In this document: in pieces, positions 11,565 to 50,078 of the stretch
How positions within the stretch are numbered: position 1 is the first letter of the stretch
Layout of the letters: each line of letters opens with the position of its first letter
Source: a phage
Reading direction: 5' to 3' (one strand)
Sequence record: NC_107631.1
Length of the DNA stretch: 50,078 bases
Position numbers and translations under genes: made by a program
Notes under the pieces: model-generated
What the model was told of the DNA's origin: nothing
What the model saw: only the letters and a program-made list of their open reading frames with translations
Database searches by the model: none

Positions 11565-11570
11565 CTGTGC

Positions 11571-21060: not shown

Positions 21061-21063
21061 ATT

Positions 21064-23637: not shown

Positions 23638-23678
23638 TGATTTTTCCTCTTGTTTACCTGCAACCATTCTACAGCTAC

Positions 23679-23702
23679 AAAAAAACCCGCGCAAGGCGGG
23701 CT
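23679..23702 (-). terminator. intrinsic terminator/attenuator
   Basis: ACCCGCGCAAGGCGGGC hairpin with A7 on plus strand; near-identical to the hairpin at 21034..21060. Confidence 0.6.
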
Positions 23703-23716
23703 TTTGTTATGTAGCG

Positions 23717-27311: not shown

Positions 27312-27619
27312 GCGCGGTGTCCTGCGAGCGCCTTGATGTAAGTTGCCGTCAGATTGTACGCTGCTGAAGGATAATACTGTACCAGTTTACGCGCATTCTC
27401 TTCGTTAAATTCTTCTTCCAGATTCCATCCTGATGCGATCTTAGTGATGAAATCGCTATCATTCATTTCGCCCTGCTTCGCATACATATCTTGCACTTCT
27501 TTACTGGAAAGGTGGCGTACTGTAAAAATAATAGTCGCATCCTCGCCGTTTGGCATGGTGAACGTCACCGGAAGTTTGAAGTCTGGAAGCTGCCCCAACA
27601 CGAAATTGAATTTAGCCAT
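27302..27619 (-). CDS. tail assembly chaperone (gpG-like)
   Basis: Position between major tail and tape measure genes; ends in slippery site; conserved CAACCAATCAGGAG RBS. Confidence 0.6.
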   Translation of the reverse strand: MAKFNFVLGQLPDFKLPVTFTMPNGEDATIIFTVRHLSSKEVQDMYAKQGEMNDSDFITKIASGWNLEEEFNEENARKLVQYYPSAAYNLTATYIKALAGHRAKN

Positions 27620-27640: not shown

Positions 27641-27657
27641 ATAGCACTTTTTGTTAA
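27641..27657 (-). promoter_or_regulatory. dyad element immediately upstream of RBS
   Basis: TTAACAA-AAA-GTGCTAT on the coding strand, directly abutting CAACCAATCAGGAG. Confidence 0.5.
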
Positions 27658-27700
27658 AAGTTAAGTGAATAAAGTTGATAGGATGATTTTACAGAAATGA

Positions 27701-31400: not shown

Positions 31401-31429
31401 ATAATAGCACTTTTTGTTAAAGCGTCAAA
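31401..31429 (-). promoter_or_regulatory. sigma70 promoter with embedded dyad element, upstream of the major capsid gene
   Basis: On minus strand TTTGAC-N17-TATTAT with TG extension; the spacer contains TTAACAA-AAA-GTGCTAT; followed by hairpin AAGCCGTG..CACGGCTT and T-run. Confidence 0.5.
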
Positions 31430-38107: not shown

Positions 38108-38632
38108 CTACAGCAATCCAATAACCTTGTCTACCGCGTCCTTCATTGCATCCTCAGTAGTGGCGACCACTGTCGATGCGGAGGCTGACGAGTTTTCGAT
38201 ATTTATTGAGGCTGGCTTATCGATTCCGAGATCCTTACCGATAAAGGAGGCATTAATAACACCGTTGGCGGCAAGCTGAAATTTTTGCTCGTTGATTACG
38301 GATTCCACGAACTCCATAACCTCACTGTATTCTTCCTCACGCTTCCACTTAATGATTGCGGCCTCGCTTGCACCGATAAATAGTCGGTATCCGGTCCAGG
38401 TGAAGACGCGCGGCTTATGAACAAGCGATTCATAAACGCCACCCTGAAAGCTGGCTGATTCTGACGCCTTTATCGCATTGTCTTCAGCCCATTCGAAATA
38501 CTTAACTGACAGATCGAATAGTTGCTCAGGCGTCATTGCCCGGTTCTTCGCAAGAACAGTGCCGAACTTTTTCTTGTATAGCTCTTTGAAATTACCTCCC
38601 TGAACAACGGGGGCGTTCTTAGGTTCACTCAT
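38108..38632 (-). CDS. putative terminase small subunit
   Basis: Position upstream of the large terminase; start moved to Met9 with AGAGGG RBS. Confidence 0.45.
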   Translation of the reverse strand: MSEPKNAPVVQGGNFKELYKKKFGTVLAKNRAMTPEQLFDLSVKYFEWAEDNAIKASESASFQGGVYESLVHKPRVFTWTGYRLFIGASEAAIIKWKREEEYSEVMEFVESVINEQKFQLAANGVINASFIGKDLGIDKPASINIENSSASASTVVATTEDAMKDAVDKVIGLL

Positions 38633-38649
38633 AAATCCATCCTCTTTGT

Positions 38650-38666
38650 TTAACATTTAGTGCTAT
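38650..38666 (-). promoter_or_regulatory. dyad element just upstream of the putative TerS RBS
   Basis: TTAACAT-TTA-GTGCTAT on plus strand; TGGTAAAAT extended -10-like sequence adjacent on minus strand. Confidence 0.4.
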
Positions 38667-38682
38667 TTTACCATATTGCAGG

Positions 38683-38712
38683 CATAAAAAAACCCGCCGG
38701 AGCGGGTTAGTG
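38683..38712 (-). terminator. intrinsic terminator
   Basis: ACCCGCCGGAGCGGGT hairpin with A7 on plus strand. Confidence 0.55.
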
Positions 38713-38716
38713 TTTA

Positions 38717-38944
38717 TCACGACAATAGTCGTTTAATGCCTTTAGGGTGGGTCTTAGCTTTAGAATAGCAGTGAGCAAGGTCGCCAGTCATTTCCCATTG
38801 GTCCCTCTTAGGTGAGTAGGTCAGCCATACACCAGTTTTATCCTTCGCGTCCATCGCAATTGCTGCCGCAACAAGTGCGAAGCCAGCAAACAAACCAGCA
38901 CCAAAAATAACAACACCAGCGATAATCAATAAAAAAATTGTCAT
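38717..38944 (-). CDS. small membrane protein
   Basis: N-terminal transmembrane helix (IFLLIIAGVVIFGAGLFAGFALVAAAIA). Confidence 0.45.
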   Translation of the reverse strand: MTIFLLIIAGVVIFGAGLFAGFALVAAAIAMDAKDKTGVWLTYSPKRDQWEMTGDLAHCYSKAKTHPKGIKRLLS

Positions 38945-38945
38945 G

Positions 38946-39131
38946 TTAAATCTCCTTGATTAATTCAATATTTATTTTGTGAGTGTCAAAGTTAGCGCCG
39001 GAAAGTTTTTTTGCTTTCGTGATGGCTTCTGCCTGACTGGTTGCTGATAATTCAGTTTCGAAAGATTGCTTGCACGACTGGCAAAACATTCCCATCTTTC
39101 GAATAATTAATTTAACTTTGAATCGCTTCAT
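38946..39131 (-). CDS. hypothetical small protein
   Basis: 61 aa; contains a C-x-x-C pair. Confidence 0.4.
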   Translation of the reverse strand: MKRFKVKLIIRKMGMFCQSCKQSFETELSATSQAEAITKAKKLSGANFDTHKINIELIKEI

Positions 39132-39273
39132 CTTCCTGCGCCTTAATCATAACGCCAGCAATGCGACCAATAACAGCCTCGCCAGGATTTAATCGTTTTT
39201 TATAACGAGTGGTTTCACCGTTGCGAGTTACTTTAATTTCAATTTTGACTGATTCATCTTTAGTGTTTTGCAT
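39111..39273 (-). CDS. hypothetical small protein (about 53 aa), not in ORF track
   Basis: ATG 9 nt after AGAGGA; coordinates approximate. Confidence 0.3.
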
Positions 39274-39449
39274 TATGCAATCCTCTTGAATTTTTGCCGC
39301 TTACGGGTCTGCGGCGTTGCTTAACCACTATGCAACCGAGCTTGTTAGCTGGAAGTGTGAGAATCGTCTCACGCGTTGCGACTAATTGCGCCTCGTCTGT
39401 CTACGTGATTAATACTATCACCGCTCAGGGACGTAGGTCAATCATTAAT

Positions 39450-39641
39450 TTAGAATTGTCCCTTAGTCATATCCTGCGGGTAATCAATCTCATGCAAGTT
39501 TCCATCATCCCCGTACACGAATACAAGTCTCTTTGATTTACTAACCTTTTCTACGTCGTACGCGCACCCCGCCGAGAAAGCATTACCATTGCGTGAAGTG
39601 ACACATCTAACCTGATCGCCTTTCTTCGGTAAATTAGCCAT
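39450..39641 (-). CDS. hypothetical protein
   Basis: 63-aa ORF in compact same-strand array. Confidence 0.45.
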   Translation of the reverse strand: MANLPKKGDQVRCVTSRNGNAFSAGCAYDVEKVSKSKRLVFVYGDDGNLHEIDYPQDMTKGQF

Positions 39642-39871
39642 TATTCGTAATCCCCTTCTTTGTTACCTACGCGCCCTGCAATATACCCGGCAGTCCATAC
39701 AAATTTGTATCGGTCGATGAGTAGCTCGACCTTTTTGTGGTGAGTCGATATTACATCAATCATGATCTTATCGTTTTTGCGATCTTCTTTCTTCATGCCG
39801 CTGACGAATTTATTTAATTCTTTAGCTGCGCGCTTTACTACGTTCCATTCTGCCTCGCTTAAACCGAACAT
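39641..39871 (-). CDS. hypothetical protein
   Basis: 76-aa ORF; start/stop overlap with neighbours. Confidence 0.45.
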   Translation of the reverse strand: MFGLSEAEWNVVKRAAKELNKFVSGMKKEDRKNDKIMIDVISTHHKKVELLIDRYKFVWTAGYIAGRVGNKEGDYE

Positions 39872-40215
39872 TATTTACCTCTCCCAAATGAAAAATTAAC
39901 ACCTAAAACCTGATTGCAAACCGACTCCATGTATCGCAACTGGTATTGAGCAACCTTTGAAGGACTTAATTCATCGGTAAATAAATCCTCAACATTTATT
40001 TCTTTTTTATGCTTGCGCTTCCATGCCTTGATGATATTTGGCAGGATTCGCTCGCTCTTCCAGGCTGCAAACTCAGATTGATTCGTTGATGCCGGGGTAA
40101 ACTGCCTTTCGATCTGGTTAAGAAGTTCGGCGGCAGCGCCTTTTACGTGAAGCTGTTCACCAATCGTGTCCAAGAGTTCGCGAGCTTGTTTCTCTGACAA
40201 GTTAATCGTAATCAT
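39871..40215 (-). CDS. hypothetical protein
   Basis: 114-aa ORF, translationally coupled. Confidence 0.45.
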   Translation of the reverse strand: MITINLSEKQARELLDTIGEQLHVKGAAAELLNQIERQFTPASTNQSEFAAWKSERILPNIIKAWKRKHKKEINVEDLFTDELSPSKVAQYQLRYMESVCNQVLGVNFSFGRGK

Positions 40216-40421
40216 GCCTCTTCTCCTTCTTCTTCGATCGGGGTAAAGAACTGCGTTTTAGTTTCCTGGTTGTAATAAACACCTTCGTCATAATCGCTTT
40301 CTTTTACTGCGATAAAAACATCACAGCCGTCATGCATAAAGTCGCCGCTGTCAGTTTCAATCAGCTCGAATATCTCAGAAGTTTTAGTGCAAGTGAAAAA
40401 CTTATCAGTTGATACCATCAT
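40212..40421 (-). CDS. hypothetical acidic small protein
   Basis: 69 aa; preceded by a dyad-motif promoter cassette. Confidence 0.45.
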   Translation of the reverse strand: MMVSTDKFFTCTKTSEIFELIETDSGDFMHDGCDVFIAVKESDYDEGVYYNQETKTQFFTPIEEEGEEA

Positions 40422-40453
40422 TTTGATTTTCTCTCTTCGTTGTCGATGAGGTA

Positions 40454-40497
40454 ACTATATCAAATCACCCCATCGACGTTTTAGCAATTCGTGCTAT
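40454..40497 (-). promoter_or_regulatory. dyad-motif middle promoter
   Basis: ATAGCAC-GAA-TTGCTAA; TGaTATAGT extended -10 28 nt downstream inside inverted repeat GTCGATG..CATCGAC. Confidence 0.55.
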
Positions 40498-41066
40498 TTA
40501 TTGATGAACGTGGCGGCTATGTGCTGAGCGGTAATTTCTGGATGGCCTTCGACAGAAAAGAAGTCACATTCCTGATAACCGTTGACCCCAATCATATCGT
40601 CCAGGTAGATATAGTCTCGACTGTCATTATCGAAGTTGCAACCGTTGCGATGTATTCGACATAGCTTTACCTGGATATCACCTTCAATCATCTGCAATAT
40701 TTCATCTTTGAATCCACCATCAGTAAATACCGAAAGGGAGTGAGACTCTTTCACCTTGCTTTCCGCTCGCATACCGAAGAAGCGATTTCCGAACTGCGGC
40801 TTGATGACTTCCTCGCTAATCCAGATCATAAACTGGCGAGGGCTTTTACCGTTCAGGATTGATGCTGGCTCTTCTTTATATCGACGGTCCTCATACAAGA
40901 ACATGAAATACTCGTAGTTAGCTTCACCCAGGATTGCCCGGGCAATCTCAAACATTGGCGCTTTGAAGCTGCGCAAGGCTACGTGATCGTAAGTGTCAGC
41001 CAGGATGCATCCGATAGTGTCTTTTCCCGCGCCAGGTGCGCCGTTTAAAATGATAGCTGTTTTCAT
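40494..41066 (-). CDS. P-loop kinase, polynucleotide kinase-like
   Basis: Walker A ILNGAPGAGKDT resembling the T4 Pnk N-terminal kinase domain; AGGGAG RBS. Confidence 0.55.
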   Translation of the reverse strand: MKTAIILNGAPGAGKDTIGCILADTYDHVALRSFKAPMFEIARAILGEANYEYFMFLYEDRRYKEEPASILNGKSPRQFMIWISEEVIKPQFGNRFFGMRAESKVKESHSLSVFTDGGFKDEILQMIEGDIQVKLCRIHRNGCNFDNDSRDYIYLDDMIGVNGYQECDFFSVEGHPEITAQHIAATFINK

Positions 41067-41174
41067 GTTAGCATCTCCCTAAAAATAATTTTGCCACATT
41101 GATGATTGTGTGATTGATGATTAACAGGATGATAACCGTCAATACCGGATGTGCTGCAATAAATTCGTACAGGT

Positions 41175-41708
41175 TCATTCATCTACCCCGTGGGATTTTA
41201 AATGATCGTGAACGTTATCACCATAGTCAACTACAGCGTAAGTGGTTATCCCAAGCGATCTGAATAATGGAATAATTTGCGGCGAGTCATCCCAAGCCGC
41301 CAGAATGTTATCAATGCCGATCGCGCGCACCGCCTCTTCTTTCATTACCGTGTCTTTGCGGTTGTCGGTGTGCGGTCGCATGACTAAGTAATCATATCGA
41401 GCGCCGTGATGCTTAAGCCATAACTCAGATGCGTAACGCACCTCATCACTTCGCCCGGTTAAAATTATTACATGATATCCAGCGGCAAACATAGAGTTCA
41501 TCACATCGATCGTGCTTTGGATAGGGTTGTCAAATATTGCCGCGCGGTTAAACTCGGACCAGCTTTCAGTCAAGTGCAAATCCTTTGTCGGCAGCAGGTG
41601 AAGTCGACCAGAACCATCGCTAAGTGTCCCGTCAAAGTCAAAGATTGCCACGCGGCGCGTGCCGAGAAACAGGTTGATTGTCTGGCCCCAAATTGTGATT
41701 TTATCCAT
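41175..41708 (-). CDS. HAD-family phosphatase, T4 Pnk 3'-phosphatase domain-like
   Basis: VAIFDFDGTLSD and NP..GYHVIILTGRS match the T4 Pnk phosphatase motifs FDVDGTL and GYQIVVVSGRES. Confidence 0.65.
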   Translation of the reverse strand: MDKITIWGQTINLFLGTRRVAIFDFDGTLSDGSGRLHLLPTKDLHLTESWSEFNRAAIFDNPIQSTIDVMNSMFAAGYHVIILTGRSDEVRYASELWLKHHGARYDYLVMRPHTDNRKDTVMKEEAVRAIGIDNILAAWDDSPQIIPLFRSLGITTYAVVDYGDNVHDHLKSHGVDE

Positions 41709-41748
41709 GATTTATTCCTCTGATTGGTTGCTTAACTCAACGAAGGGC

Positions 41749-41792
41749 ATTCTAACAAATACCCTTGAGCAAGTTTTAGCAATTCGTGCTAT
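41749..41792 (-). promoter_or_regulatory. dyad-motif middle promoter
   Basis: ATAGCAC-GAA-TTGCTAA then TGtTAGAAT 28 nt downstream inside inverted repeat AAGGG..CCCTT. Confidence 0.55.
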
Positions 41793-42286
41793 TACCAGTA
41801 ATCAACCTCGTAGTCAGCCCAGGCGTCAAAATCACTTTGGCAGAATGTTCCGCTATAATTTTCCATCATTTCATCGATCAGGAAGTAGCATGACTCACCG
41901 TTACGATAGAAGTATGAATCAGCAACGTTACGCGCCCATCGCCCGGCATCTTTCTTGCTCATCTTCCAGTGTTTCATTGCAATTTTCTTGAATGCGCGAA
42001 CAACGCGTTTGCGGATCTTGACATGCTTGTACACCGCATTGCAGCCGTAGGCCATATATTCGTTATTTCCAAGATTCTGCATGATGTAAGGATTAACCTC
42101 TTTCGATGTGATTTCCAGATCGCCATCATCCAGCTTGTCATCTTGAATCTTAGCTGTAATGTAGTGACCTTTGAACATACCTAAGCCATGCAGAGTGTAC
42201 TCGTCGTTAGGTGCTTCAATACAGATTAGGTGTTTCATTCGTGCTTCCTCTTTTGTTGGTGTAGGGGAATCATAGCGCATTCCCAT
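41792..42286 (-). CDS. hypothetical protein
   Basis: 164-aa ORF with Trp/Tyr-rich C-terminus. Confidence 0.5.
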   Translation of the reverse strand: MGMRYDSPTPTKEEARMKHLICIEAPNDEYTLHGLGMFKGHYITAKIQDDKLDDGDLEITSKEVNPYIMQNLGNNEYMAYGCNAVYKHVKIRKRVVRAFKKIAMKHWKMSKKDAGRWARNVADSYFYRNGESCYFLIDEMMENYSGTFCQSDFDAWADYEVDYW

Positions 42287-42312
42287 TGATAGGTTTTAGC
42301 AATTCGTGCTAT
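42269..42312 (-). promoter_or_regulatory. dyad-motif middle promoter
   Basis: ATAGCAC-GAA-TTGCTAA then TATGAT 28 nt downstream inside inverted repeat GGGAAT..ATTCCC. Confidence 0.55.
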
Positions 42313-42671
42313 TCGTTTTAATAGTGATGCAAAAATAATTTTTTAAGCACGTCACTACGCGCGCTGAATCGACTTGTGGGAGCCTTAAAATTTCGTGGGT
42401 CAATTGCACTGCCGACACATCAGATTTGTAGTAGTGGGCGATTCTGGAGCTATTTGGGCGCATTCCTTCCACTGCGTCGCGTGCTGCATCTTCTGCTGTC
42501 ATGATAGTAGCCATAAAACACCCTTAAGAGATAGAGTCAGAAACAGGAGGCAGAATAACAACTCATGAAATGATGGAGGTTCGTTTTTCCAGTTCTTAAA
42601 GTCAGGCATAAAGCTATTCATATTCACCTCATAAAAATAGGGAACCGCTCAGGAACGATTCCCACTTTAAT

Positions 42672-43328
42672 TTAAACTACGAAAAACAGCACGATAAGAG
42701 AAATAAGAAGCACGGTAGCCATAGCCAGGTTCGCCAGATTATCAATGTCCTTGTTGGTCAGCTTAGGCTTGACTTTACCATCAACTTCGGTTGGCTTAAC
42801 GCTGTGAATCTTACCCTGTTCGATGCGGAAACCGCCCTTGATTCGACTGGTATTAAATTTCTGCTTCTTCTTGCCGAACGTTGCAAACTTAGTGCCGCCA
42901 CTATTCCAGCGAAGACCCTCGCCGTTGTGAGTTACGGTTGCAATGCGGTTGCGACCCGTGTCGTCGGTAATTACAGCTGCGTGCTTTGCGTTCTCGGTCG
43001 GTACATCGTAGATATTGCCAACGGTAAATTTTTTGGTGTTATCGCTGATACATTCGAATTTCATAGTTTTTACCTCTTTATTATGCAGTTGGTTGATTGC
43101 TTCGATTACGTCGTTAAATTTAACACCATCCACGATTCGATGGAAGATATATTTTGAACTACCGCCATATGGCAGGAAAAGCTCCTGGTATTCGTGACGC
43201 CGCACAACGTTCACGTTACTACCGAACTCATCAACTATAACGAAGTTGTCGTCATTGACGCGAGCGCCTTCGTAGATTTTGCCGTACTTAAAACCAGATC
43301 CGATACTTGATACGCATTCAAATTTCAT
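42672..43328 (-). CDS. membrane-anchored protein with tandem duplicated domain
   Basis: Two repeats each beginning MKFEC(V/I)S...G(K/N)IY; C-terminal transmembrane anchor. Confidence 0.5.
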   Translation of the reverse strand: MKFECVSSIGSGFKYGKIYEGARVNDDNFVIVDEFGSNVNVVRRHEYQELFLPYGGSSKYIFHRIVDGVKFNDVIEAINQLHNKEVKTMKFECISDNTKKFTVGNIYDVPTENAKHAAVITDDTGRNRIATVTHNGEGLRWNSGGTKFATFGKKKQKFNTSRIKGGFRIEQGKIHSVKPTEVDGKVKPKLTNKDIDNLANLAMATVLLISLIVLFFVV

Positions 43329-43612
43329 GGTCTAACCTTCCTGTAAGGTTTGATTGATAACATCACGTATTGCGTGAAGTCGCATTCTTGCTCGTCATAC
43401 CCGCGATTGATGTACGGAGTCACGTCGGTAACATCGGATACCCTGGCGTGAACCTCCCAACCGGTAAACTCATCGCGATCGAACTCTCGTAGCTCAAGGA
43501 TATCACCAACCTGGAAGTTTCTGTCATTGACTCGGAACTCTGCCGTTTTGGTTCCGTTCATTACACCAATGAAATGTACCGGGGCGATTTTTAACTTATG
43601 AGTTTTGCTCAT
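43325..43612 (-). CDS. small beta-barrel protein, possibly ASCH/DUF3850-like
   Basis: 95 aa; weak pattern resemblance only; translationally coupled to the downstream gene. Confidence 0.35.
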   Translation of the reverse strand: MSKTHKLKIAPVHFIGVMNGTKTAEFRVNDRNFQVGDILELREFDRDEFTGWEVHARVSDVTDVTPYINRGYDEQECDFTQYVMLSIKPYRKVRP

Positions 43613-43802
43613 CTTTCTTTACCTCGAATGTCACGTTCCAGAATTTATTGCCGCATGAATGATAGATTACGTCATGAGATGTTAGTTCGTGCAATGCGTG
43701 CCCGACAATATCCATTCGGTCATTCGGCGTCAGTCCGCGAAGCGATTCACGAAGGCGTGAGGCCTTGTCGTAAATCTGCCACTGAGTTAGTCGTGTAGCC
43801 AT
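43596..43802 (-). CDS. hypothetical protein
   Basis: Start moved to Met15, directly after the conserved CAACCAATCAGAGGAAT cassette. Confidence 0.45.
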   Translation of the reverse strand: MATRLTQWQIYDKASRLRESLRGLTPNDRMDIVGHALHELTSHDVIYHSCGNKFWNVTFEVKKDEQNS

Positions 43803-43842
43803 AGCTGATTCCTCTGATTGGTTGCCATGCTTCAATAAGGCC

Positions 43843-43886
43843 ACTATATCAAATGGCCTTGCGGAAGGTTTAGCAATTCGTGCTAT
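43843..43886 (-). promoter_or_regulatory. dyad-motif middle promoter (cassette family B)
   Basis: ATAGCAC-GAA-TTGCTAA then TGaTATAGT 28 nt downstream inside inverted repeat GGCCA..TGGCC. Confidence 0.55.
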
Positions 43887-43949
43887 TTAAAACTTTCTTG
43901 ATGCGATTGCGATAAAACTGCATTACGTGCTCATTATGCCAATTGCTCA

Positions 43950-44435
43950 TTATTTCGCCTCGTAGCGTACAAGCGTTCCGCGCTTAATGCTGATTTCACC
44001 TGATACCGTCTTGTGTTTGAAGCTGCCATAATGCAATAGAAGAGTGATGATATCGTCGTGCACTTCAATAGTTTTCGGCGTAGCGGTGATTTCAAGCCAG
44101 GATTTATCATCAAGCTGAACTCCTTTTAGCGTTGCGCTAAGTGGCATGTTCTCGATTTGAGTGCATTGTAGCATCGGCTTGATTTCTGGCTTTGCTGCGT
44201 GAAAGATGGCTCGACCAGTCTTCCAGCCAGGCCCGACACTCTCAACATAATACGGAAGAGATGGGATGTTATCAGGATTGTGATTGTTATGAAGCTCTAT
44301 GAGATTACCAACAATCGACGGATGGCACTCATTGAATGACGAATCAGTTGCACGATCTTTGCTGTGGCAGGTTATTTTACCGCAGCTAATAGTGTTAAAA
44401 ACTACAGGGAATTTAATCTCGTTTAATTTCAACAT
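43950..44435 (-). CDS. hypothetical protein
   Basis: 161-aa ORF served by its own dyad-motif promoter. Confidence 0.5.
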   Translation of the reverse strand: MLKLNEIKFPVVFNTISCGKITCHSKDRATDSSFNECHPSIVGNLIELHNNHNPDNIPSLPYYVESVGPGWKTGRAIFHAAKPEIKPMLQCTQIENMPLSATLKGVQLDDKSWLEITATPKTIEVHDDIITLLLHYGSFKHKTVSGEISIKRGTLVRYEAK

Positions 44436-44465
44436 AATGACTTCCTCTTAGTGGTCGATGCGGGG

Positions 44466-44509
44466 ATTATACCAGTCAGGACAAATCCCCTTTTAACAAT
44501 TCGTGCTAT
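44466..44509 (-). promoter_or_regulatory. dyad-motif middle promoter
   Basis: ATAGCAC-GAA-TTGTTAA then TGgTATAAT 28 nt downstream inside inverted repeat GGGGATT..AATCCCC. Confidence 0.6.
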
Positions 44510-44976
44510 TTGGTAAGATACTTCACGTTACTACCAGCAACCTCATTCCAGCCGTCATCAAAGAACACGCTGTAGCACGTTGCTGAGCGCTGTCGAATCT
44601 TCGATACGGTTCGCCACACTTTACGCCCCGAGTAACCAGTCAGCACACGCATCCCTGGCAATAACTCACCCGACTTTCTCACCTTAATAGCCACATCAGA
44701 ATCAAGCTCGAACGACTCAAGATAGACCGGGTTAATCATATTCCACATACGGCGCTCTTCGTGCTCATCTGCCCACTCGCAGCCATTGTTCGTCTTGATA
44801 GATCCAATGAAGCAACCCAGTTTTTCAGTAAGTGAGTCTGCGCGGTATGAGTTGATATCGATGACCGTGTAGTGGCTGTACATATGCCAGTGCGATCCGG
44901 TTTTGTGCTCAAACGCGAAGAATGACATTTCGCCATCAATCTCATCTTTAGCCAGAAATACGGTAATTGTCGCCAT
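44506..44976 (-). CDS. hypothetical protein
   Basis: 156-aa ORF. Confidence 0.5.
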   Translation of the reverse strand: MATITVFLAKDEIDGEMSFFAFEHKTGSHWHMYSHYTVIDINSYRADSLTEKLGCFIGSIKTNNGCEWADEHEERRMWNMINPVYLESFELDSDVAIKVRKSGELLPGMRVLTGYSGRKVWRTVSKIRQRSATCYSVFFDDGWNEVAGSNVKYLTK

Positions 44977-44978
44977 GA

Positions 44979-45173
44979 TTAAGCCTCAGCAAAGTAAGTG
45001 TTAAAGCCTTTGAGTTTGTAGTCGCTACCTACGCGCACAACGTTCCAGGCAAGGCCCGAGTGATATGCAACCATATCCTCAAGGTCGATCGTGATTTCGG
45101 TTCCTTTCTTGAACAGACCCTTTTCATGAGTTGAGTCGCGCTGAACAACAACCACATCAATTTGAGTTTCCAT
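44979..45173 (-). CDS. hypothetical small protein
   Basis: Start moved to Met23, preceded by GAGGAAACGAAG, identical to the RBS of the gene at 46658..46828. Confidence 0.45.
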   Translation of the reverse strand: METQIDVVVVQRDSTHEKGLFKKGTEITIDLEDMVAYHSGLAWNVVRVGSDYKLKGFNTYFAEA

Positions 45174-45205
45174 CTTCGTTTCCTCTGTATCGTGTCGATG
45201 AGAAG

Positions 45206-45249
45206 ATAATACCCGATCCGCTCGATCGGGCTTTAACAAAAAGTGCTAT
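45206..45249 (-). promoter_or_regulatory. dyad-motif middle promoter (cassette family A)
   Basis: ATAGCAC-TTT-TTGTTAA then TATTAT 28 nt downstream after inverted repeat CCCGATC..GATCGGG. Confidence 0.55.
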
Positions 45250-46060
45250 TCCATTCGCTAATTTTTGGAGGCTTTACAGATTCAACACAGTTCTTCAATA
45301 TCGCACACCTTTCGGCAAGTATGTCTGATTTGCTGCCACCTTTGGAAAGGCATTGATCTACAGCTTGCTTAACGTCATCAGTATCAATCCACTTATCCTT
45401 GTGGATACTCCTCCTGCAAGCCTCAATTGTCACTACCTTATTTATGGCAAGGTACTTAGGAACGTTGCAAGCCAGGTTAGTGCTATCTGCTGAGTTTAGA
45501 GGGTAGTTACCTAAAACTCTTCCATCAAGCATCCTTAGCCCATGCAGTTTTACCTCAACATTAGATTCCTTAATGGCTGAAAAAGCCTCACTTATCCTTT
45601 GCTTCCACCTGGCGGATCTGACTGTTGCAAATTCTCCAGAAGATCCCATGCATACCCATTCCCATTTTTCACATAGACTTATCAGTCTGCTTATTGGCTC
45701 GTGCATATGCCACACCGGAGCTGCCTTACTCTTTAGATCTGAAGGCAACTGAGATATGAGCTTATCATTATCCTCGGCACTGCCAGTTATGTCATCCGGG
45801 ATAACAAAGAATCTCAATTTTGGGTTGTCAAACCAGTCAGGAAGGAAGTTGCAATAAAACTCTCTCCAGTCTTGATTCTTCCCGCTCTTCCACTTTGAGA
45901 ACGCCCCATTATCTATGCATACAGTGTCAGCCGCATCAAAGGCTAATTTTATCTGATCAGGTCGCTCGAATGATACGAATGCACCGCTTCCACGGTGCGC
46001 GATTCGTGCAATCCTTCCCCTATCTCCCCATATTGGAGATCCGTGAAAGTGAATTGTCAT
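45233..46060 (-). CDS. DpdA-like DNA-guanine transglycosylase (TGT family), putative
   Basis: Local matches to TGT catalytic motifs: CIDNGAFS vs LTDSGGFQ, FVIPDD vs MIFDEC, SADSTNLACNVP vs GIDMFDCVMP; overlaps the start of the transporter-like gene. Confidence 0.5.
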   Translation of the reverse strand: MTIHFHGSPIWGDRGRIARIAHRGSGAFVSFERPDQIKLAFDAADTVCIDNGAFSKWKSGKNQDWREFYCNFLPDWFDNPKLRFFVIPDDITGSAEDNDKLISQLPSDLKSKAAPVWHMHEPISRLISLCEKWEWVCMGSSGEFATVRSARWKQRISEAFSAIKESNVEVKLHGLRMLDGRVLGNYPLNSADSTNLACNVPKYLAINKVVTIEACRRSIHKDKWIDTDDVKQAVDQCLSKGGSKSDILAERCAILKNCVESVKPPKISEWNSTFC

Positions 46061-46536
46061 AGTTTAAATTTCCTCATGATAGCTATGATTATAAATGCGC
46101 CAACTGTCTTAGCTGCGAATTGAGCTAATGAAACATCAATCATTATGCTTCCGAATGCTATCATTGGGAACGCCATAGAGTCAATTGCAGCCGACACTGT
46201 ATTTGCCGGGATTGATTTGCTGTAGAAGTCACCACGCTTCAACTTGAACGTTATGGCGCTACCAGTTCCAGCAAGGATTACTGATGATACTGATGCAACA
46301 GCTATCATTCCTGCACTGGGGTCTATAATCACTGTAGCAATCCCAGCTACAAAGCAAGCTAGCATCGAATACCAGAACCCAAAATTGTGCTGTATCTTGT
46401 CCCTGATAACCATGTCTGCTGATATGATTACGAGTGCATTGATTGGGGTTGACCACACCCCAAAGTACGCTACTGACAGGTTTGCTGCAACATACAGCAA
46501 AACAAATAATACAATCATTACTGATAATTTACGCAT
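46057..46536 (-). CDS. YhhQ/QueT-family (DUF165-like) 7-deazaguanine precursor transporter, putative
   Basis: About 6 predicted transmembrane helices; F-KLKRGDFYSKSIPANTVSAAIDSMAFPMIAF aligns with E. coli YhhQ FNRLRQSRRWWLAPTASTLFGNVSDTLAFFFIAF. Confidence 0.55.
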   Translation of the reverse strand: MRKLSVMIVLFVLLYVAANLSVAYFGVWSTPINALVIISADMVIRDKIQHNFGFWYSMLACFVAGIATVIIDPSAGMIAVASVSSVILAGTGSAITFKLKRGDFYSKSIPANTVSAAIDSMAFPMIAFGSIMIDVSLAQFAAKTVGAFIIIAIMRKFKL

Positions 46537-46657
46537 ACGGCCTCCGTGGAAAAGATTGGTAGGATCTGGATGTTTGGTCTAACCTGCCTGATTCTGCTTA
46601 CGATTGATTCATCACTTAGAGGATAAAACACACCATTTACGAGCCATCCTATCCTAA

Positions 46658-46828
46658 TCATTCGTCGATCTCTCCAATATACTTAGCCTCTTTCCACTGT
46701 GAGTATGCATCTTGCTCGCTGAACCCGTAGCCAGTAAAGCCACCTCCCTGGCACATGAACCGCTTAAATTTCATGATTCCTTTGTAGCTGTCGCCGCGGT
46801 CGGTGATTTTGCATTCTTCGTTAATCAT
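46658..46828 (-). CDS. hypothetical small protein (about 56 aa), not in ORF track
   Basis: ATG preceded by GAGGAAACGAAG; coordinates approximate. Confidence 0.4.
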   Translation of the reverse strand: MINEECKITDRGDSYKGIMKFKRFMCQGGGFTGYGFSEQDAYSQWKEAKYIGEIDE

Positions 46829-46859
46829 CTTCGTTTCCTCGTTCGTTGTCGATGGGATA

Positions 46860-46903
46860 ACTATACCAAGCTATCCCGATCCAGCTTTAACAAAAAGTGC
46901 TAT
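46860..46903 (-). promoter_or_regulatory. dyad-motif middle promoter (cassette family A)
   Basis: ATAGCAC-TTT-TTGTTAA then TGgTATAGT 28 nt downstream inside inverted repeat GGGATA..TATCCC. Confidence 0.55.
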
Positions 46904-46917
46904 TTACCGTTCAGTGC

Positions 46918-47493
46918 TCACAGTCCACACTTTTCGATATGCGCTTTCATCTGGCGAACGATCTCGTTTACGTCACGAGTCATCAATTCGCTATCAGCCA
47001 GTTTACCCACATCAACCACAAACGAATCCAGGCAATCAGCCAGGCTAACTTTTTTCCGACTGCGGCGCTTCTTCACTGGAACTTCTTCGTCACTCACTGA
47101 GATGGTAACGACTCGCAACTTCTCATCGTTCATGGTTACGCTCACCTTGACCGACTTGCCGATTTTGGAGAAGTGACGAGAAACGATCGGGGTGATGAAT
47201 GATGATTTAAACTTCTCGTTAATCTCTTCCGTCTTCCCGAGCAACCAAGACTCGGCATATCCGCTAACAGCATCATCATCAGCGTCAGGGACTGACTTTC
47301 TCACTGCTGCCTCAGCCATCTGAGTAGCGTCGAATGAGAACTCGACATTCTCGCCATCACCATAAAGCTGATCGCAAGCGGCACGGATAACATCGGTCAC
47401 TTTTGCCTCCTGGCGCTTCTCAACGGTCACGCCAGATTTCTGGTAAGCCGCCTGAATTGCTGCCTGCACTGCGTCTGATTGGTAAGAACTCAT
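46918..47493 (-). CDS. hypothetical protein, first gene of the leftward accessory operon
   Basis: Start moved to Met31 with GAGGAG RBS; acidic N-terminal half, basic patch KKRRSRKK. Confidence 0.5.
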   Translation of the reverse strand: MSSYQSDAVQAAIQAAYQKSGVTVEKRQEAKVTDVIRAACDQLYGDGENVEFSFDATQMAEAAVRKSVPDADDDAVSGYAESWLLGKTEEINEKFKSSFITPIVSRHFSKIGKSVKVSVTMNDEKLRVVTISVSDEEVPVKKRRSRKKVSLADCLDSFVVDVGKLADSELMTRDVNEIVRQMKAHIEKCGL

Positions 47494-47608
47494 ATCTTTC
47501 TCCTCATTTTCAATATACACCATGATTAACATGTAACACTGTGTCTCTAATCGTAGTGTTACACGGCGACACGCTTGTGTCAAGGCTTGCGAGCCGATTT
47601 TAAGCGTG

Positions 47609-47635
47609 GTTAATCGTGTTAATCGTGTTAATCGC
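47609..47635. repeat. tandem direct repeat (GTTAATCGT)x3
   Basis: Three consecutive 9-bp units in the divergent control region, next to GTGTTACA sites. Confidence 0.7.
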
Positions 47636-47699
47636 TTTTCCCATATAAATATGAGCCGATAAAACTACTGTATATATAAACATGAATATAATAACCAGA

Positions 47700-47830
47700 G
47701 CATCCAACGATTAACATAGTAGACACGCTATACATCCATATTACAAATAATAGTATCTATATATATAAATAAAAAAAACACTTATATATTATATATATAC
47801 ATATATCTATATGTATATTATAAGGCGTAA
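47700..47830. repeat. AT-rich low-complexity block with TATATATA runs
   Basis: Extended TA-rich sequence resembling the block at about 16060-16125. Confidence 0.6.
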
Positions 47831-47911
47831 TTTGGTGTAATTTTGTCTACGATTGCGATTTAGGCAAATCATATACATGGATTAACACACAATCAAGCGT
47901 AATCGTAATTG

Positions 47912-47928
47912 ATAGCACTTTTTGCTAA
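47912..47928 (+). promoter_or_regulatory. dyad element without an obvious -10 partner
   Basis: ATAGCAC-TTT-TTGCTAA; no -10-like hexamer at +28 on either strand. Confidence 0.4.
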
Positions 47929-48116
47929 AAATGGAGATGACTACCAGGCGAACCGGGTAACACCAATTCCTCCCTCTCACAATCATTGCAATCTCAGCAA
48001 CAAATCAACCAACTGTTGCACACCATGCAATAATCACGTTTCATCATTCGCAATCAATAACAATCAAAATTATTCCACCTATTCCAGTATTGATGGAATA
48101 ATGAGCAATTATTGAA

Positions 48117-48161
48117 ATAGCATTTTTCGCTAACGACTTGACCAGGTTGTCAGGGTATAGT
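48117..48161 (+). promoter_or_regulatory. dyad-motif promoter (degenerate) for the rightward early genes
   Basis: ATAGCAT-TTT-TCGCTAA then TATAGT about 29 nt downstream; followed by CAACCAATCAGGAG RBS cassette. Confidence 0.45.
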
Positions 48162-48193
48162 TCGGGCCATCAACCAATCAGGAGAATCACCAT

Positions 48194-48424
48194 ATGGCAA
48201 TCAAACACCCTGGATTAAAGAAAGCAATCCAGCGCGCCAATGACGAGGGATTCATTGTCTACCGCACACATTACGGTCACATGGGTGGATTAAAAGAGCA
48301 TCATACAAAGGTTGAGCTTGTCGACCTTTGGGAAGATTACGATACATTCCAGTATATCGCCACGTCTGACGTAGAGGCGCAAGTGAAATACATCAACGAT
48401 ACAATTGATAGTTTTAGAGGGTGA
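48194..48424 (+). CDS. hypothetical early protein
   Basis: 76 aa; conserved CAACCAATCAGGAG RBS. Confidence 0.5.
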   Translation: MAIKHPGLKKAIQRANDEGFIVYRTHYGHMGGLKEHHTKVELVDLWEDYDTFQYIATSDVEAQVKYINDTIDSFRG

Positions 48425-48428
48425 TTAC

Positions 48429-48800
48429 ATGTTTAAACAATTCGTAGACCTTGACTTCTCAGCAAGCACAGCAATCCAGACTGACGAGAAAGAGAACGTA
48501 GCGATCGAGAACATTGCTCGCAAGATTTACAACAAGCAAGAGAAGGCAGTGAGAGCCGCTCTAAGCGCTTATTACGGTGTAAGTGATGCAATGGAGTGTG
48601 TTAACCGTGTAACGCGCGTGGTGGACCGTTCTGGCGCGTCTCGTTTCGTCGATGACGATACTGGCGAAACAATCATCCAGCTTAACAATCCATCCATGCG
48701 CACCGAGCTTGGCAATATTGCATTATGGGGCGTGGCTAACTACTCAATCACCGTGAACTCCTGCATTGCGGGTCGCGTCAAGGAGGCATTATATGAGTGA
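48429..48800 (+). CDS. hypothetical early protein
   Basis: Start moved to Met9 with AGAGGG RBS; 123 aa. Confidence 0.5.
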   Translation: MFKQFVDLDFSASTAIQTDEKENVAIENIARKIYNKQEKAVRAALSAYYGVSDAMECVNRVTRVVDRSGASRFVDDDTGETIIQLNNPSMRTELGNIALWGVANYSITVNSCIAGRVKEALYE

Positions 48801-48993
48801 TAATATTTACCGCGTAGTGGCGATCTCACGTAAGACACAGAAGAGAGCGATCGCTTACATGGGTAGTAGCGCCATTGAAGCTACGGACGCTTTCGAATTG
48901 CTAAAGAATAATGAAGGATTTATGAACACGTTCCGCGTTCGACTTGAGCGCCTCGAACCTGTTATCATTGATGAAGCGCGAAAGCTATCCTGA
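48793..48993 (+). CDS. hypothetical early protein
   Basis: Start moved to Met10 with AGGAGG RBS; overlaps the previous stop. Confidence 0.5.
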   Translation: MSDNIYRVVAISRKTQKRAIAYMGSSAIEATDAFELLKNNEGFMNTFRVRLERLEPVIIDEARKLS

Positions 48994-49010
48994 ATGGTTA
49001 AGGGGGAGTA

Positions 49011-49331
49011 ATGAACCACACTTACAAAATCACAACGAAGTCACCGAAGATTAACGGAAGCACGGTTGCGGCACTGAATAACGCGGCGGCAATTCACGAA
49101 AAAAATATCATGGAGCGCGTGAAGGCAGCGGTAGGTAGATTCTACGGGATCAATGCCGACATTGCCGACAGCAAGCGACTGTTCAAATACGTTCCAGGTC
49201 ATCCATATGGCAGGATGATTGATATCAAGCATGATAAAGAACTGGTTCGAATCGGATCGCTTAGCGTTGACGAGTTCGACCATAGCATCAACCTGGTTAC
49301 GGCATATCAAACATGGGACGGTAAAAAATGA
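49011..49331 (+). CDS. hypothetical early protein
   Basis: 106 aa; RBS AAGGGGGAG. Confidence 0.5.
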   Translation: MNHTYKITTKSPKINGSTVAALNNAAAIHEKNIMERVKAAVGRFYGINADIADSKRLFKYVPGHPYGRMIDIKHDKELVRIGSLSVDEFDHSINLVTAYQTWDGKK

Positions 49332-49471
49332 TTTATGTTCACACCTTTTATACAGGAAAGTTTAACAGCGTAAAAAATGTTCGCGTTTACGATAGTCACC
49401 AAAAAGCAATGATGCAGAGAGTAGTGCTAGGAGGAACAATCAAAGAGTGCAAAGTAATCTCTGAGTACTGA
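49328..49471 (+). CDS. hypothetical very small protein, not in ORF track
   Basis: ATG overlapping the previous stop (ATGA); coordinates approximate. Confidence 0.25.
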   Translation: MIYVHTFYTGKFNSVKNVRVYDSHQKAMMQRVVLGGTIKECKVISEY

Positions 49472-49515
49472 TAGCACAAATTGCTAAAGACACACACCGG
49501 GGAGTGAGTTATATT
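49471..49515 (+). promoter_or_regulatory. dyad-motif promoter
   Basis: ATAGCAC-AAA-TTGCTAA then TTATAT(T) 28-29 nt downstream inside inverted repeat GGGAGT..ACTCCC. Confidence 0.5.
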
Positions 49516-49548
49516 ACTCCCACACCAAACGAAACAAAGGAATCAAAA

Positions 49549-49773
49549 ATGAGCATTAAAGTTGAGAATATCATCAAGCACTTGAACGCAAAAGGTCGTG
49601 TAGTTATCAAAATGGATAAGTCTTCCGGTTTTATTTCAATGACGGTAACTAAGACCCGTAACGGTAATAACGTTATTGGCAGCACGCCAGGCTCGCACTT
49701 AGTAAATGCAACAGATGCGGATGTGCGCGCTACGCTTGAGGCTAACTCAATTTACATTAATTCATGGAGTTAA
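49549..49773 (+). CDS. hypothetical early protein
   Basis: Start moved to Met16 with AAAGGA RBS; 74 aa. Confidence 0.5.
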   Translation: MSIKVENIIKHLNAKGRVVIKMDKSSGFISMTVTKTRNGNNVIGSTPGSHLVNATDADVRATLEANSIYINSWS

Positions 49774-49777
49774 TTTA

Positions 49778-49990
49778 ATGGAACGGGATAATTTCTGGAC
49801 TCGTTATTTTGGCGCTCTTGATGCTGGTCTTAGTGCTGAATGGTGTATCAAGGTAGCGTATAAAGAAATAACGCTTGAAGAGGCTTTGGGTGATATGAAT
49901 ATGGACGAAGAAAGTGAGTTTGATCCTGATTTTGAATTACCAGAAGAACCAAAAAACGAAGATTTAGACGACGATTATATCCCGTGGTAA
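49778..49990 (+). CDS. small acidic protein with SSB-tail-like C-terminus
   Basis: Start moved to Met25 with GGAG RBS; C-terminal DEESEFDPDFELPEEPKNEDLDDDYIPW. Confidence 0.5.
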   Translation: MERDNFWTRYFGALDAGLSAEWCIKVAYKEITLEEALGDMNMDEESEFDPDFELPEEPKNEDLDDDYIPW

Positions 49991-50034
49991 ATAGCACGAT
50001 TTGTTAATATTGCCGTAAGGTCATTTGATAAAGT
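49991..50034 (+). promoter_or_regulatory. dyad-motif promoter (cassette family B)
   Basis: ATAGCAC-GAT-TTGTTAA then TGaTAAAGT 28 nt downstream inside inverted repeat; the whole cassette is near-identical to the one at 43803..43886. Confidence 0.55.
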
Positions 50035-50070
50035 GGCCTTATTCAAGATAACCAATCAGGAGTTAACACC

Positions 50071-50078
50071 ATGAAAAA
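50071..50078 (+). CDS. start of a gene truncated by the window end
   Basis: ATG AAA AA following the conserved AACCAATCAGGAG cassette. Confidence 0.4.

Follow-up and report, generated by a model that had tools for sequence, protein, structure and literature searches.

The complete, circularly permuted genome of the T1-like siphovirus NC_107631.1 (Drexlerviridae, Tunavirus; 50,078 bp, all of which formed the window analysed here) carries many copies of a compact intergenic element, one of which occupies positions 43800-43889 on the minus strand. We propose, at a probability of roughly 0.7, that this stretch is one copy of a standard transcription-start cassette of T1-like phages, driven by an activator and doubling as a recombination joint. 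The cassette has a constant order: the stop codon of the upstream gene, a conserved motif, a -10 element, a hairpin around or before the -10, a leader with a ribosome-binding site (RBS), and a start codon. At 43800-43889 a TAA stop adjoins the motif ATAGCACGAATTGCTAAA (43886-43869), followed by the extended -10 TGATATAGT at 43851-43843 and a predicted +1 A at 43836; the hairpin spans 43867-43830 (-16 kcal/mol, z = -3.7), with an inner stem that pairs 43860-43854 with 43843-43837 and an outer CTTC/GAAG stem, and the leader and RBS CAACCAATCAGAGG (43824-43811) lead to the ATG at 43802-43800.

The first-pass annotation of this DNA had described the region upstream of the small gene 43596-43802 as near-identical to that upstream of the gene starting at 50071. 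The duplication is real, the reverse complement of 43830-43889 and 49988-50047 being 83% identical over 60 nt without a gap, but "near-identical" somewhat overstates it: from TAA stop to start codon, 68 of 88 columns agree, with one indel of 3-4 nt, and the overall identity of the cassettes 43800-43889 (minus) and 49988-50073 (plus) is 77-83%. The second cassette has its motif at 49991-50008, TGATAAAGT at 50026-50034, a predicted +1 at 50041, a hairpin at 50010-50046 (z = -4.5), the leader TAACCAATCAGGAG at 50049-50062 and ATG at 50071. The inverted repeat reported for both is a GGCCA...TGGCC stem at 43800-43889, whereas the second copy reads GGTCA...TGGCC with one G-U pair. The downstream genes are unrelated, as had been claimed: the 68-aa product of 43596-43802 and the 138-aa protein behind the second cassette give no BLASTP hit even at E ≤ 100. 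The gene for the latter runs through 50071-50078 and then 1-409, because the record is circularly permuted. A second family of cassettes was also correctly recognised 5' of 40421, 45173 and 46828, with CATCGACAACGA or CATCGACACGA followed by GAGGAAACGAAG-ATG, and the CAACCAATCAGGAG RBS context does recur, with nine occurrences at ≤2 mismatches against 0.30 expected (14621, 16314, 24240, 27627, 36759, 41717, 43811, 48171 and 50049). What had been called a dyad is the motif ATAGCAC-N3-TTGCTAAA. The cassette similarity persists in a formal alignment, and the two small duplicated families, both of which exist, turn out to be members of one genome-wide promoter class; this class flanks many small accessory open reading frames (ORFs), as proposed, but also stands 5' of helicase, primase, Erf, Dam methylase and pnk genes.

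The motif, ATAGCAC-N3-TTGnTAAA, occurs 24 times in the genome at ≤3 mismatches, against 1.92 expected and a maximum of 7 in 100 shuffles, and is present 4-18 times in each of 73 related loci, for 761 instances in total. To derive base profiles, these instances were thinned to 72 cassettes less than 60% identical 3' of the motif and aligned on the motif without gaps. In this set G4, C5, A6 and A17 are found in 72/72, G13 and A16 in 71/72 and C7 in 67/72. The full element, (A)AATAGCAC-N3-TTGnTAAAA, covers 19-21 bp, from about -51 to -32, and contains a dyad, TAGCA-N5-TGnTA, centred some 42 bp 5' of a conserved A that we take as the predicted +1. A -10, usually of the extended type (TGnTAnnnT), follows TTGnTA at a fixed 22 bp, with no indels among the 72 cassettes; its base counts are 51 for G-14, 40 for T-12, 51 for A-11 and 49 for T-7. 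Seven bases past the -10, C-1 (39/72) and A+1 (42/72) form a typical start site. Of the 24 copies in NC_107631.1, 17 share a single architecture, with the motif at -50 to -33 followed by -10, hairpin and leader. In 650 of 734 instances the motif begins 70-89 nt ahead of the start codon, and it points toward its downstream gene, three antisense copies excepted. Judged from sequence, the cassettes are very probably promoters of this geometry.

What the cassettes lack is a -35 hexamer: none is present at a spacing of 16-18 bp, and positions -35 to -30 read AAAAcn across the 72 cassettes. Scans for TTGACA-N16-18-TATAAT stayed at chance level (in the early region 25 hits where 25 are expected, and genome-wide 11 against 8-19), and a canonical sigma-70 promoter was rejected for the cassettes on this ground. 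Two further assignments were tried and rejected. TTGnTA does not serve as a -35 with a 17-bp spacer, as no -10 lies there, and the sigma-54 consensus TGGCAC-N5-TTGC is not matched by TAGCAC-N3-TTGC, which is 2 bp too short, has AG for GG and is accompanied by a sigma-70-type -10 at fixed distance. Promoters that depend on an activator in place of a -35 are well known and include the class II CRP and FNR promoters (site near -41.5), the Mor- and C-dependent promoters of phage Mu and the MotA-dependent middle promoters of T4. The cassettes resemble the class II type in their good -10, missing -35 and conserved box just 5', and would do so in the dyad centre at about -42 if the predicted +1 holds. 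The T4 MotA box TGCTTtA resembles the right half TGCTAAA of the motif, although the cassette box lies some 9-10 bp further upstream; the CRP, FNR and Mor sites are unrelated to the motif in sequence, and the binding protein is here only a candidate. No homologue of MotA, AsiA or Mor came to light, although no search was aimed at one.

The motif is a member of a published Drexlerviridae repeat family. A 21-nt direct repeat, aaATAGCACnnnTTGnTAAAA, was described in phage TLS in 18 intergenic copies about 76 nt 5' of start codons (German, Kropinski, Misra et al. 2024, PMC11447400), and occurs also in T1, Rtp and Rogue1 (PMC11447400). The repeats agree in consensus, in orientation with transcription, in the distance of about 76 nt to the start codon and in the subgroups with A, T or G in the central triplet. 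The TLS authors recognised only three sigma-70-like promoters, suggested stoperators, enhancer sites or UP elements as possible roles of the repeat, and listed its function as open (PMC11447400). Beyond that description, we add the fixed extended -10 and +1, the absent -35, a covarying hairpin, leader families, atypical copies and a link to breakpoints. The central triplet of the motif clusters by region, reading GAA in six copies, those of consecutive cassettes in the leftward operon (40480, 41775, 42295, 43869 and 44492) plus 11570, and TTT or TAA/AAA elsewhere. Such clustering is consistent with local duplication of, or gene conversion among, adjacent cassettes, or else with functional subclasses of the kind suggested by the A/T/G groups of TLS.

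The hairpin is a property of the class as a whole. Folding of the 44 nt from -32 to +12 gave a mean z of -2.3, where random 44-mers taken from the same genomes average -0.07, and z fell below -2 in 57% of cassettes against 5% of the random 44-mers; the values for five named cassettes are -3.7, -4.5, -6.4, -3.5 and -2.6. Its position relative to the promoter varies: among 138 diverged cassettes, the 3' arm extends past the -10 in 69 and the stem ends at T-12 in 29. A single consensus register for all cassettes was rejected, since the stem sequence varies and the register shifts. Covariation was examined in a subfamily picked by loop sequence alone (ATTTG; 68 distinct sequences, the cassette 43800-43889 included). 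Its stem is paired in 87% of cells, compared with 68% in shuffles and 36-45% for slid partners, and changes on both sides occur in 147 cells against 57, for a covariation score of 0.54 against 0.20 that 0 of 500 shuffles reached. The inner helix of this subfamily holds 42 G-T but only 7 A-C mispairs, an excess that points to RNA of the sense strand. Because the predicted start lies inside or after the hairpin, the structure would be present only in transcripts reading in from the upstream gene, and its probable role is to attenuate the upstream transcript or shield the 3' end of that RNA, which would insulate each unit. Annotators of phage SA30RD labelled such hairpins Rho-independent terminators. 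They are like these in being GC-rich stem-loops directly after genes, and unlike them in having the cassette -10 inside or directly after the hairpin and in their T-poor tails. A minority do have T-runs, such as 10494-10554 and 45211-45231 with its tail, and an intrinsic-terminator scan picked up only the 45232 hairpin among the cassettes. The Rfam 15 covariance models gave no match at E ≤ 1 in 38500-50078. For the analogous promoter early stem-loops (PeSLs) of T4-type phages, terminator function has been shown by reporter assay (Arbiol et al. 2010, PMC2839356; Comeau et al. 2014, PMC4122927).

The cassettes behave as portable units. Single-linkage clustering chained too many of them together and was replaced by pairwise spacer identity. 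There are about 100 cassette families, and spacers and hairpin arms are free to vary. We compared 707 cassettes with a called downstream gene, counting proteins with no hit at E < 1e-3 as unrelated. Among pairs with unrelated downstream proteins, 252 share 18/18 spacer bases and 1161 share at least 16/18, whereas in a control with the register displaced by 3 nt no pair rose above 13/18 and 0 reached ≥16/18. Of 926 unique pairs of this kind, 683 (74%) lose their similarity within 4 nt of the motif 5' end; toward the gene, similarity always stops at +40 to +85, before or at the start codon. The cassette is thus a discrete unit of 55-85 bp with common descent in unrelated contexts, which requires exchanges at both conserved ends. 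Comparison of related genomes likewise bears out the expectation that cassette positions associate with gene-content breakpoints. When 17 Tunavirus relatives were compared, cassettes, which account for 8% of the region, contained 11 of the 33 distinct alignment breakpoints (p = 3e-5; 65 of 153 when weighted by relatives), and in an all-against-all comparison of 72 loci cassettes hold 785 of 2932 breakpoints (27%), against 5.7% expected. In the latter comparison the breakpoints peak at or inside the motif and at the leader, RBS and start codon, with no excess in the spacer; the motif peak comprises 195+77+86 breakpoints where about 48 are expected.

Individual loci illustrate how these exchanges may have proceeded. 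The minus-strand cassette 44433-44509 (motif at 44492) is chimeric: the upstream flank and the left half of the motif correspond to one cassette of the relative L004, and the right half of the motif, together with the spacer and -10, to a second L004 cassette lying 1.9 kb downstream, with the crossover inside AGCACGAATTG(T/C)TAAA. Relative to L004, 1.9 kb is missing at this site, and thirteen relatives carry an extra 1.5-1.9 kb there. A four-ORF block of 1.6 kb (45255-46825, minus strand) lies between the cassettes 46886 and 45232, is found in 0 of 95 related loci compared and is common to LHE71 only; relatives have at its site a single 46886-type cassette directly 5' of a Gp54-family gene. 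Both junctions of the block end in GAGGAAACGAAGATG, and the variable core of the cassette 46826-46903 is that of the lone Gp54-family cassette in L002, L003 and L010. At 43800-43889 itself, the 68-aa gene 43596-43802 (phrog_18601) is missing in L001, L005 and L010, where the cassette is joined straight to the next gene; the cut points of this loss are the cassette RBS/ATG (43803-43806) and the start of the next gene. At the cassette 41706-41792, relatives have an extra gene of about 200 nt inserted at the RBS/ATG edge, and after the cassette 48117 homology to relatives stops at 48184-48185, right after CAACCAATCAGGAG, with a 76-aa ORF standing in place of the relatives' Dcm methylase region.

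Which protein, then, reads the motif? The best candidate is the product of 10058-10507 (plus strand), a 150-aa protein with a Cro/YdaS-like helix-turn-helix (HTH) encoded by a Drexlerviridae core gene. It matches phrog_2856 ("transcriptional regulator") at E = 2e-76 and is found in 824 phage records, essentially all T1-like genomes. Its HTH segment is conserved across subfamilies and gives a Pfam match below threshold (E = 4e-5), and a PDB sequence search returned only a marginal match to P22 Cro (E = 0.8). The gene has a canonical sigma-70 promoter, TTGAAT-17-TATAAT (9978-10006, plus strand), whose -10 overlaps the -10 of the divergent motif-type helicase promoter, and a motif in reverse orientation (10028-10045) lies in its leader at about +14 to +31, directly 5' of the RBS. 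This arrangement is preserved in 9/9 phages drawn from Tunavirinae, Tempevirinae, Braunvirinae and Webervirus: each has the synteny helicase <- | -> regulator -> primase, a regulator promoter of the form TTGxxx-16/17-TATAAT (9-11/12 matches) and the motif in the leader. The layout looks autoregulatory and fits a gene transcribed early without an activator that would then switch on the cassette promoters. That the 10058-10507 protein is the factor binding the motif is our leading suggestion, put forward tentatively, the odds being a little short of even.

We envisage the following mechanism. Host sigma-70 RNA polymerase would use the -10, and a dimeric HTH protein seated on the dyad in the class II activator position, which is the simplest reading of the motif and for which the Cro-like protein 10058-10507 is the best candidate, would replace the missing -35 contact. 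On the motif in its own leader, the same protein would block its own gene and activate the divergent helicase promoter. Sense-strand read-through RNA would fold into the hairpin, which would attenuate the upstream transcript or stabilise its 3' end. Because both cassette ends are conserved in some 20 co-oriented copies per genome, they may act as the short homologies at which recombination takes place. Systems that pair an Erf-like annealase with exonuclease VIII can recombine such homologies, and the phage encodes both proteins in one recombination block on the minus strand (13968-15751; Erf-like single-strand annealing protein at 13968-14612, exonuclease VIII at 14690-15751). These enzymes plausibly recombine cassette ends and thereby generate deletions, insertions and replacements of genes between or beside cassettes; gene turnover at cassettes is seen as a pattern across genomes, and the enzymology is our inference. 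A fuller version, in which the motif is the operator of one Cro-like master regulator, encoded in the replication module, that from about -42 activates some 17-20 -35-less promoters, and with them most of T1-type transcription, and from other positions represses its own and some late promoters, while the cassette is also an Erf/exonuclease VIII recombination module, combines several of these steps and is accordingly more speculative, having perhaps one chance in three. If true, it would make the cassettes an independently evolved, activator-dependent siphovirus counterpart of the T4 PeSLs.

Several observations weigh against this reading. The hairpin is weak in 40 of the 138 diverged cassettes, and no pairing register is common to the family (best 6-bp helix 0.51 against a background of 0.35). 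The folding energies of the sense and antisense strands, -11.3 and -10.4 kcal/mol, differ only slightly (p = 0.01), and not significantly in the strict set. T-runs are scarce 3' of the stems (mean 1.5 T in 8 nt; ≥5 T in 5 of 98), so that most hairpins do not qualify as canonical intrinsic terminators. Promoter geometry is absent from seven of the 24 motif copies, which adjoin an RBS, run antisense or lack a -10, and pure activation does not explain them. In the literature on T1-like phages we found no measured transcription starts, RNA 3' ends or protein-DNA binding; we infer which positions are +1, that an activator is involved and which protein binds the motif. Finally, a breakpoint lies within -30 to +10 of 44% of cassette-preceded gene starts, but also of 34.5% of tightly packed starts and of 15% of other starts, in a comparison that uses crude gene calls and breakpoint events that are not phylogenetically independent.

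It follows from this last result that gene boundaries in general are joints in these genomes. Where a cassette is present, breakpoints at the start codon are modestly more frequent, and the motif forms a hot spot of its own. The earlier proposal that they mediate gene shuffling thus stands as regards breakpoints at cassettes, whereas the excess over ordinary gene starts is modest, and the proposal rests mainly on the chimeric cassette and on homology confined to the cassette. The same result sustains the most serious alternative, that cassettes are simply transcription-unit boundaries where selection on viable products tolerates indels produced by untargeted recombination. The gap in NC_107631.1 is likewise modest, with a breakpoint at 7 of 12 cassette junctions and about 5 of 19 others. 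Tolerance at gene boundaries would not, however, place a second sharp peak at or inside the motif, 5' of any coding constraint, nor put the crossover of cassette 44492 within 16-18 nt of shared motif, nor account for the identical variable cores between unrelated flanks on both sides in 74% of the 926 pairs. We consider this alternative somewhat unlikely, and it is probable that the cassettes act as recombination joints and are not merely marks of tolerated sites.

As to what drives transcription, host RNA polymerase might read the element directly, as a UP-like or displaced -35-like sequence, which would make the cassettes strong, constitutive early promoters that need no phage protein. A -35 can be dispensable for extended -10 promoters, the element includes TTG and has TAAAA as its last bases, the presumed early region holds about half of the cassettes, and similarity to UP elements was proposed by the TLS authors. 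UP elements, however, are A/T tracts at -40 to -60 that act through the minor groove and contain no specific G or C, whereas G4, C5 and G13, like A6, A16 and A17, are present in 71-72 of 72 cassettes; the invariant G/C and the dyad symmetry argue against an A/T-tract UP element. TTGnTA, 22 bp from the -10, is too far away for sigma region 4, and copies that abut an RBS or sit in the spacer of another promoter would be senseless as UP elements. On balance, direct reading by host polymerase seems unlikely.

The motif copies outside the promoter geometry, three antisense and four atypical, bring a different function to mind. A copy at 38649-38666 (minus strand) lies 17 nt 5' of the RBS/ATG of the small terminase gene, with an extended -10, TGgTAAAAT, overlapping its 5' end. 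A weak copy at 20991-21008 (minus), with two mismatches outside the variable positions, lies 4 nt 5' of the ATG of the J-like tail tip gene; for another weak copy, at 6164-6181 (minus), the start codon of the next gene is at +35, and the copy at 47912-47929 (plus) has no -10 at the standard distance. The copy at 27641-27658 (plus) is antisense to late tail genes and, thus reversed, abuts the CAACCAATCAGGAG RBS of the gene 27305-27619; the copy at 31404-31421 (plus), antisense to late head genes, sits in the spacer of a minus-strand promoter; and a copy at 11570-11587 (minus) with a poor -10 points into the 3' end of the primase gene. The promoter in question, at 31428-31401, is a canonical TTGACG-16-TATTAT (10/12) facing the major capsid gene, to which the reversed motif supplies TGcTATTAT, so that the copy could be a repressive operator on a late promoter. 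Phage LeonhardEuler (L074, 6674) has the same antisense copy and also keeps both the 27641 and the 11570 copies. Locations at an RBS, antisense or in the capsid-promoter spacer suggest that the binding protein also represses.

These locations could mean that the element is, in general, an operator for a repressor or roadblock that shuts genes off, and stoperators were among the roles suggested for the TLS repeat; copies lie over core promoter parts or before an RBS at the small terminase gene terS (38649), in the capsid promoter spacer (31404) and in the regulator leader (10028-10045). The stoperators of mycobacteriophage L5 are comparable in that many short, asymmetric sites are dispersed and oriented with transcription, but they lie in transcribed regions and are bound by a prophage repressor, whereas the motif mostly stands at a fixed distance 5' of a -10 in a virulent phage. 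Indeed, 17 of the 24 copies, and most of the 761, hold a fixed distance from a -35-less -10, which is the geometry of activation, and the annotation of a close relative has no repressor/integrase module. A purely repressive role is quite improbable in our view, while a dual activator and repressor is possible and forms part of the preferred model.

A host transcription factor such as Lrp might instead bind the dyad. The listed hosts are all Enterobacteriaceae, which share such factors, and host binding would explain expression straight after infection. The Lrp consensus obtained by systematic evolution of ligands by exponential enrichment, YAGHAWATTWTDCTR, may match the TAGCA...TGCTA flanks. 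The nearly invariant C7 (67/72) and the variability of the central triplet do not fit this consensus, and the phage offers a conserved HTH protein of its own in an autoregulatory arrangement; a host factor is very unlikely. Least credible of all is convergence, whereby similar constraints on the motif, -10 and RBS (together about 35 of 85 cassette positions) would produce the likeness without common descent or exchange: the 252 pairs that share every spacer base before unrelated genes, against none in the shifted control, make it hardly tenable.

How closely do the activator-type cassettes correspond to the PeSLs of T4-type phages, to which they had been likened at the outset? The layout agrees with the published description point by point: both are intergenic units of about 100 bp with a stop codon, promoter, stem-loop, Shine-Dalgarno sequence and start codon (PMC2839356; PMC4122927). 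In both, the stem-loop lies between promoter elements or over the -10 and its stems contain G-T pairs, and both occur as many co-oriented copies among small accessory ORFs, with cassette-bounded indels and chimeric cassettes. The likeness falters at the promoter, as PeSLs carry a sigma-70 -35/-10 consensus with AT-rich upstream DNA, while the cassettes have no sigma-70 consensus but a -10 or extended -10 with a specific upstream element, the dyad near -42, in place of the -35. The hosts of these elements differ as well: a T4-type myovirus for PeSLs, a 50-kb Drexlerviridae siphovirus here. Terminator activity, and encapsidated mini-circles produced by recombination between adjacent cassettes, have been demonstrated by experiment for PeSLs. 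Most hairpins of the present cassettes have no U-tract. Since two defining PeSL features, the sigma-70 promoter and the T4-type host, are not found, while layout and evolutionary footprint are common to both, we describe the element as an activator-type, PeSL-like cassette in T1-like siphoviruses. In the literature we found no paper that links PeSLs with T1-like phages, and the KanT1 paper makes no mention of them.

T1 is a classical coliphage, yet a 2024 re-annotation found almost no recognisable promoters and left the role of the repeat open. Reading the repeat as the upstream half of a -35-less promoter of fixed geometry yields a promoter map for a family of more than 800 sequenced genomes. 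Start sites can be predicted from it, and it also points to a named candidate for the activator and to a simple switch based on autoregulation. It would also extend the PeSL idea, that regulatory cassettes double as recombination joints, beyond T4-type myoviruses; the accessory genes shuffled by such joints include anti-defence genes and defence triggers. Promoter annotation, the engineering of T1-like therapeutic phages, with cassettes as safe insertion points, and changes in accessory gene sets are among the possible uses.

The remaining cassettes of NC_107631.1 follow the same plan, with leaders of 20-38 nt that are of two types, CATCGAmAACGA..GAGGA or CAACCAATCAGGAG. On the minus strand, 46826-46903 is of the CATCGACAACGA / GAGGAAACGAAG-ATG type; 45171-45249, 5' of the Gp54-family gene 44979-45173, has a class II hairpin, GCCCGATCgagcgGATCGGGT, followed directly by the -10 TATTAT and a T-rich tail; 42236-42312 combines a motif at 42295-42312 with the -10 TATGAT and a GGGAAT/ATTCCC hairpin; 41706-41792, 5' of pnk, has the leader CAACCAATCAGAGG; and 40419-40497 has a 15-bp hairpin (-23 kcal/mol, z = -6.4) and the leader CATCGACAACGA. 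Further predicted +1 positions on this strand are 44459, 45199, 46853, 40447, 41742 and 9995. The plus-strand cassettes 48117-48196 (RBS CAACCAATCAGGAG, then the 76-aa ORF) and 49471-49551 belong to the other arm of small genes, and 878-950 (plus) precedes the putative helicase gene 948-2516. Elsewhere on the minus strand lie 4450-4525 and 6435-6513, both with class II hairpins, that of the latter being ACCCGgcgaaagtCGGGT; 7463-7536, 5' of the Dam methyltransferase gene; 9962-10045, 5' of the DNA helicase gene, with the -10 TATTAT at 10007-10002; and 14610-14686, 5' of the Erf-like annealase gene, with the RBS ACACCAATCAGGAG, which corresponds to "DR9" of the TLS paper. The plus-strand cassette 10494-10574, 5' of the primase gene, has a predicted +1 at 10544 and a hairpin followed by TTTTTTATTTT, a true terminator shape that encloses the -10.

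A few intergenic promoters are of the consensus type. One lies 5' of exonuclease VIII (15783-15810, minus; 11/12) and is "P51" of the TLS paper, two stand at the head of the leftward small-gene operon (47788-47817 and 47868-47896, minus), and one is 5' of the gene 39112-39273 (39412-39441, minus). With the regulator promoter, these are candidates for activator-independent, immediate-early transcription. The TLS segment "P51-gp51-DR9-gp52" was considered as the regulator locus and rejected; it is the exonuclease VIII locus, matching the promoter 15810-15783 and the motif 14669.

The setting of the cassette 43800-43889 is mosaic. The surrounding 10 kb is 86-91% identical to phages LHE71, ADB-2, ISF002 and Sfin-1, which infect Escherichia or Shigella, and the matches span just 58-86% of the length in 5-9 pieces, whence the mosaic character. 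With the proteins of phage LeonhardEuler mapped onto NC_107631.1, small and mostly unannotated genes occupy 38.7-47.6 kb on the minus strand and 47.9-50.1 kb plus 1-409 on the plus strand, and the remainder of the genome holds replication, recombination, lysis and virion genes. The two small-gene arms diverge from a 330-bp intergenic region that at 47640-47830 has a very high AT content and contains direct and inverted repeats of the TATATA type (I15), and is possibly an origin, packaging site or promoter cluster.

Some neighbouring genes deserve mention. The second gene after the cassette 43800-43889 (43325-43612, minus) encodes a DUF3850/ASCH (PUA-like) protein whose homologue in relatives bears the RefSeq label "RNA-binding protein". 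The 64-aa ORF 44979-45173 (minus) matches Pfam PF25180, "phage antiviral trigger protein Gp54", at E = 3e-35, and this defence-trigger gene lies directly behind a cassette at an indel hot spot. None of the four ORFs of the adjacent block (45233-46828) has a Pfam hit; a 275-aa ORF among them is 50-59% identical to proteins of other phages, and some of its homologues are annotated as queuine tRNA-ribosyltransferase or adjoin a VUT-family transporter; it is a possible DNA-modification gene of the 7-deazaguanine type. A pair of paralogous ORFs for homing endonucleases of the HNH type, 406-891 (plus, 161 aa) and 22391-22891 (minus, 166 aa), share IDHIN..GDDRIENLRL and account for the 114-nt inverted repeat I1; the former is directly 5' of the cassette 878 and the latter lies between tail genes, and no LeonhardEuler protein matched either region.

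In the late region, 5' of the small terminase gene, 38623-38716 (minus) presents in order a strong bidirectional terminator (38691-38708), TGgTAAAAT, the motif, an RBS and ATG, an arrangement unlike that of the standard cassette and a possible control point for late genes. The repeat family D4 consists of strong terminators, AAAAAAACCCGC..GCGGG, at 21016-21066, 23659-23709 and 38666-38716, which differ from the cassette hairpins in being flanked on each side by proper T/A runs. The motif copy at 27641, located between the major tail gene and the gene after it, comes with a good extended -10 (TGATAGGAT) and would direct antisense transcription into the gene for the major tail protein.

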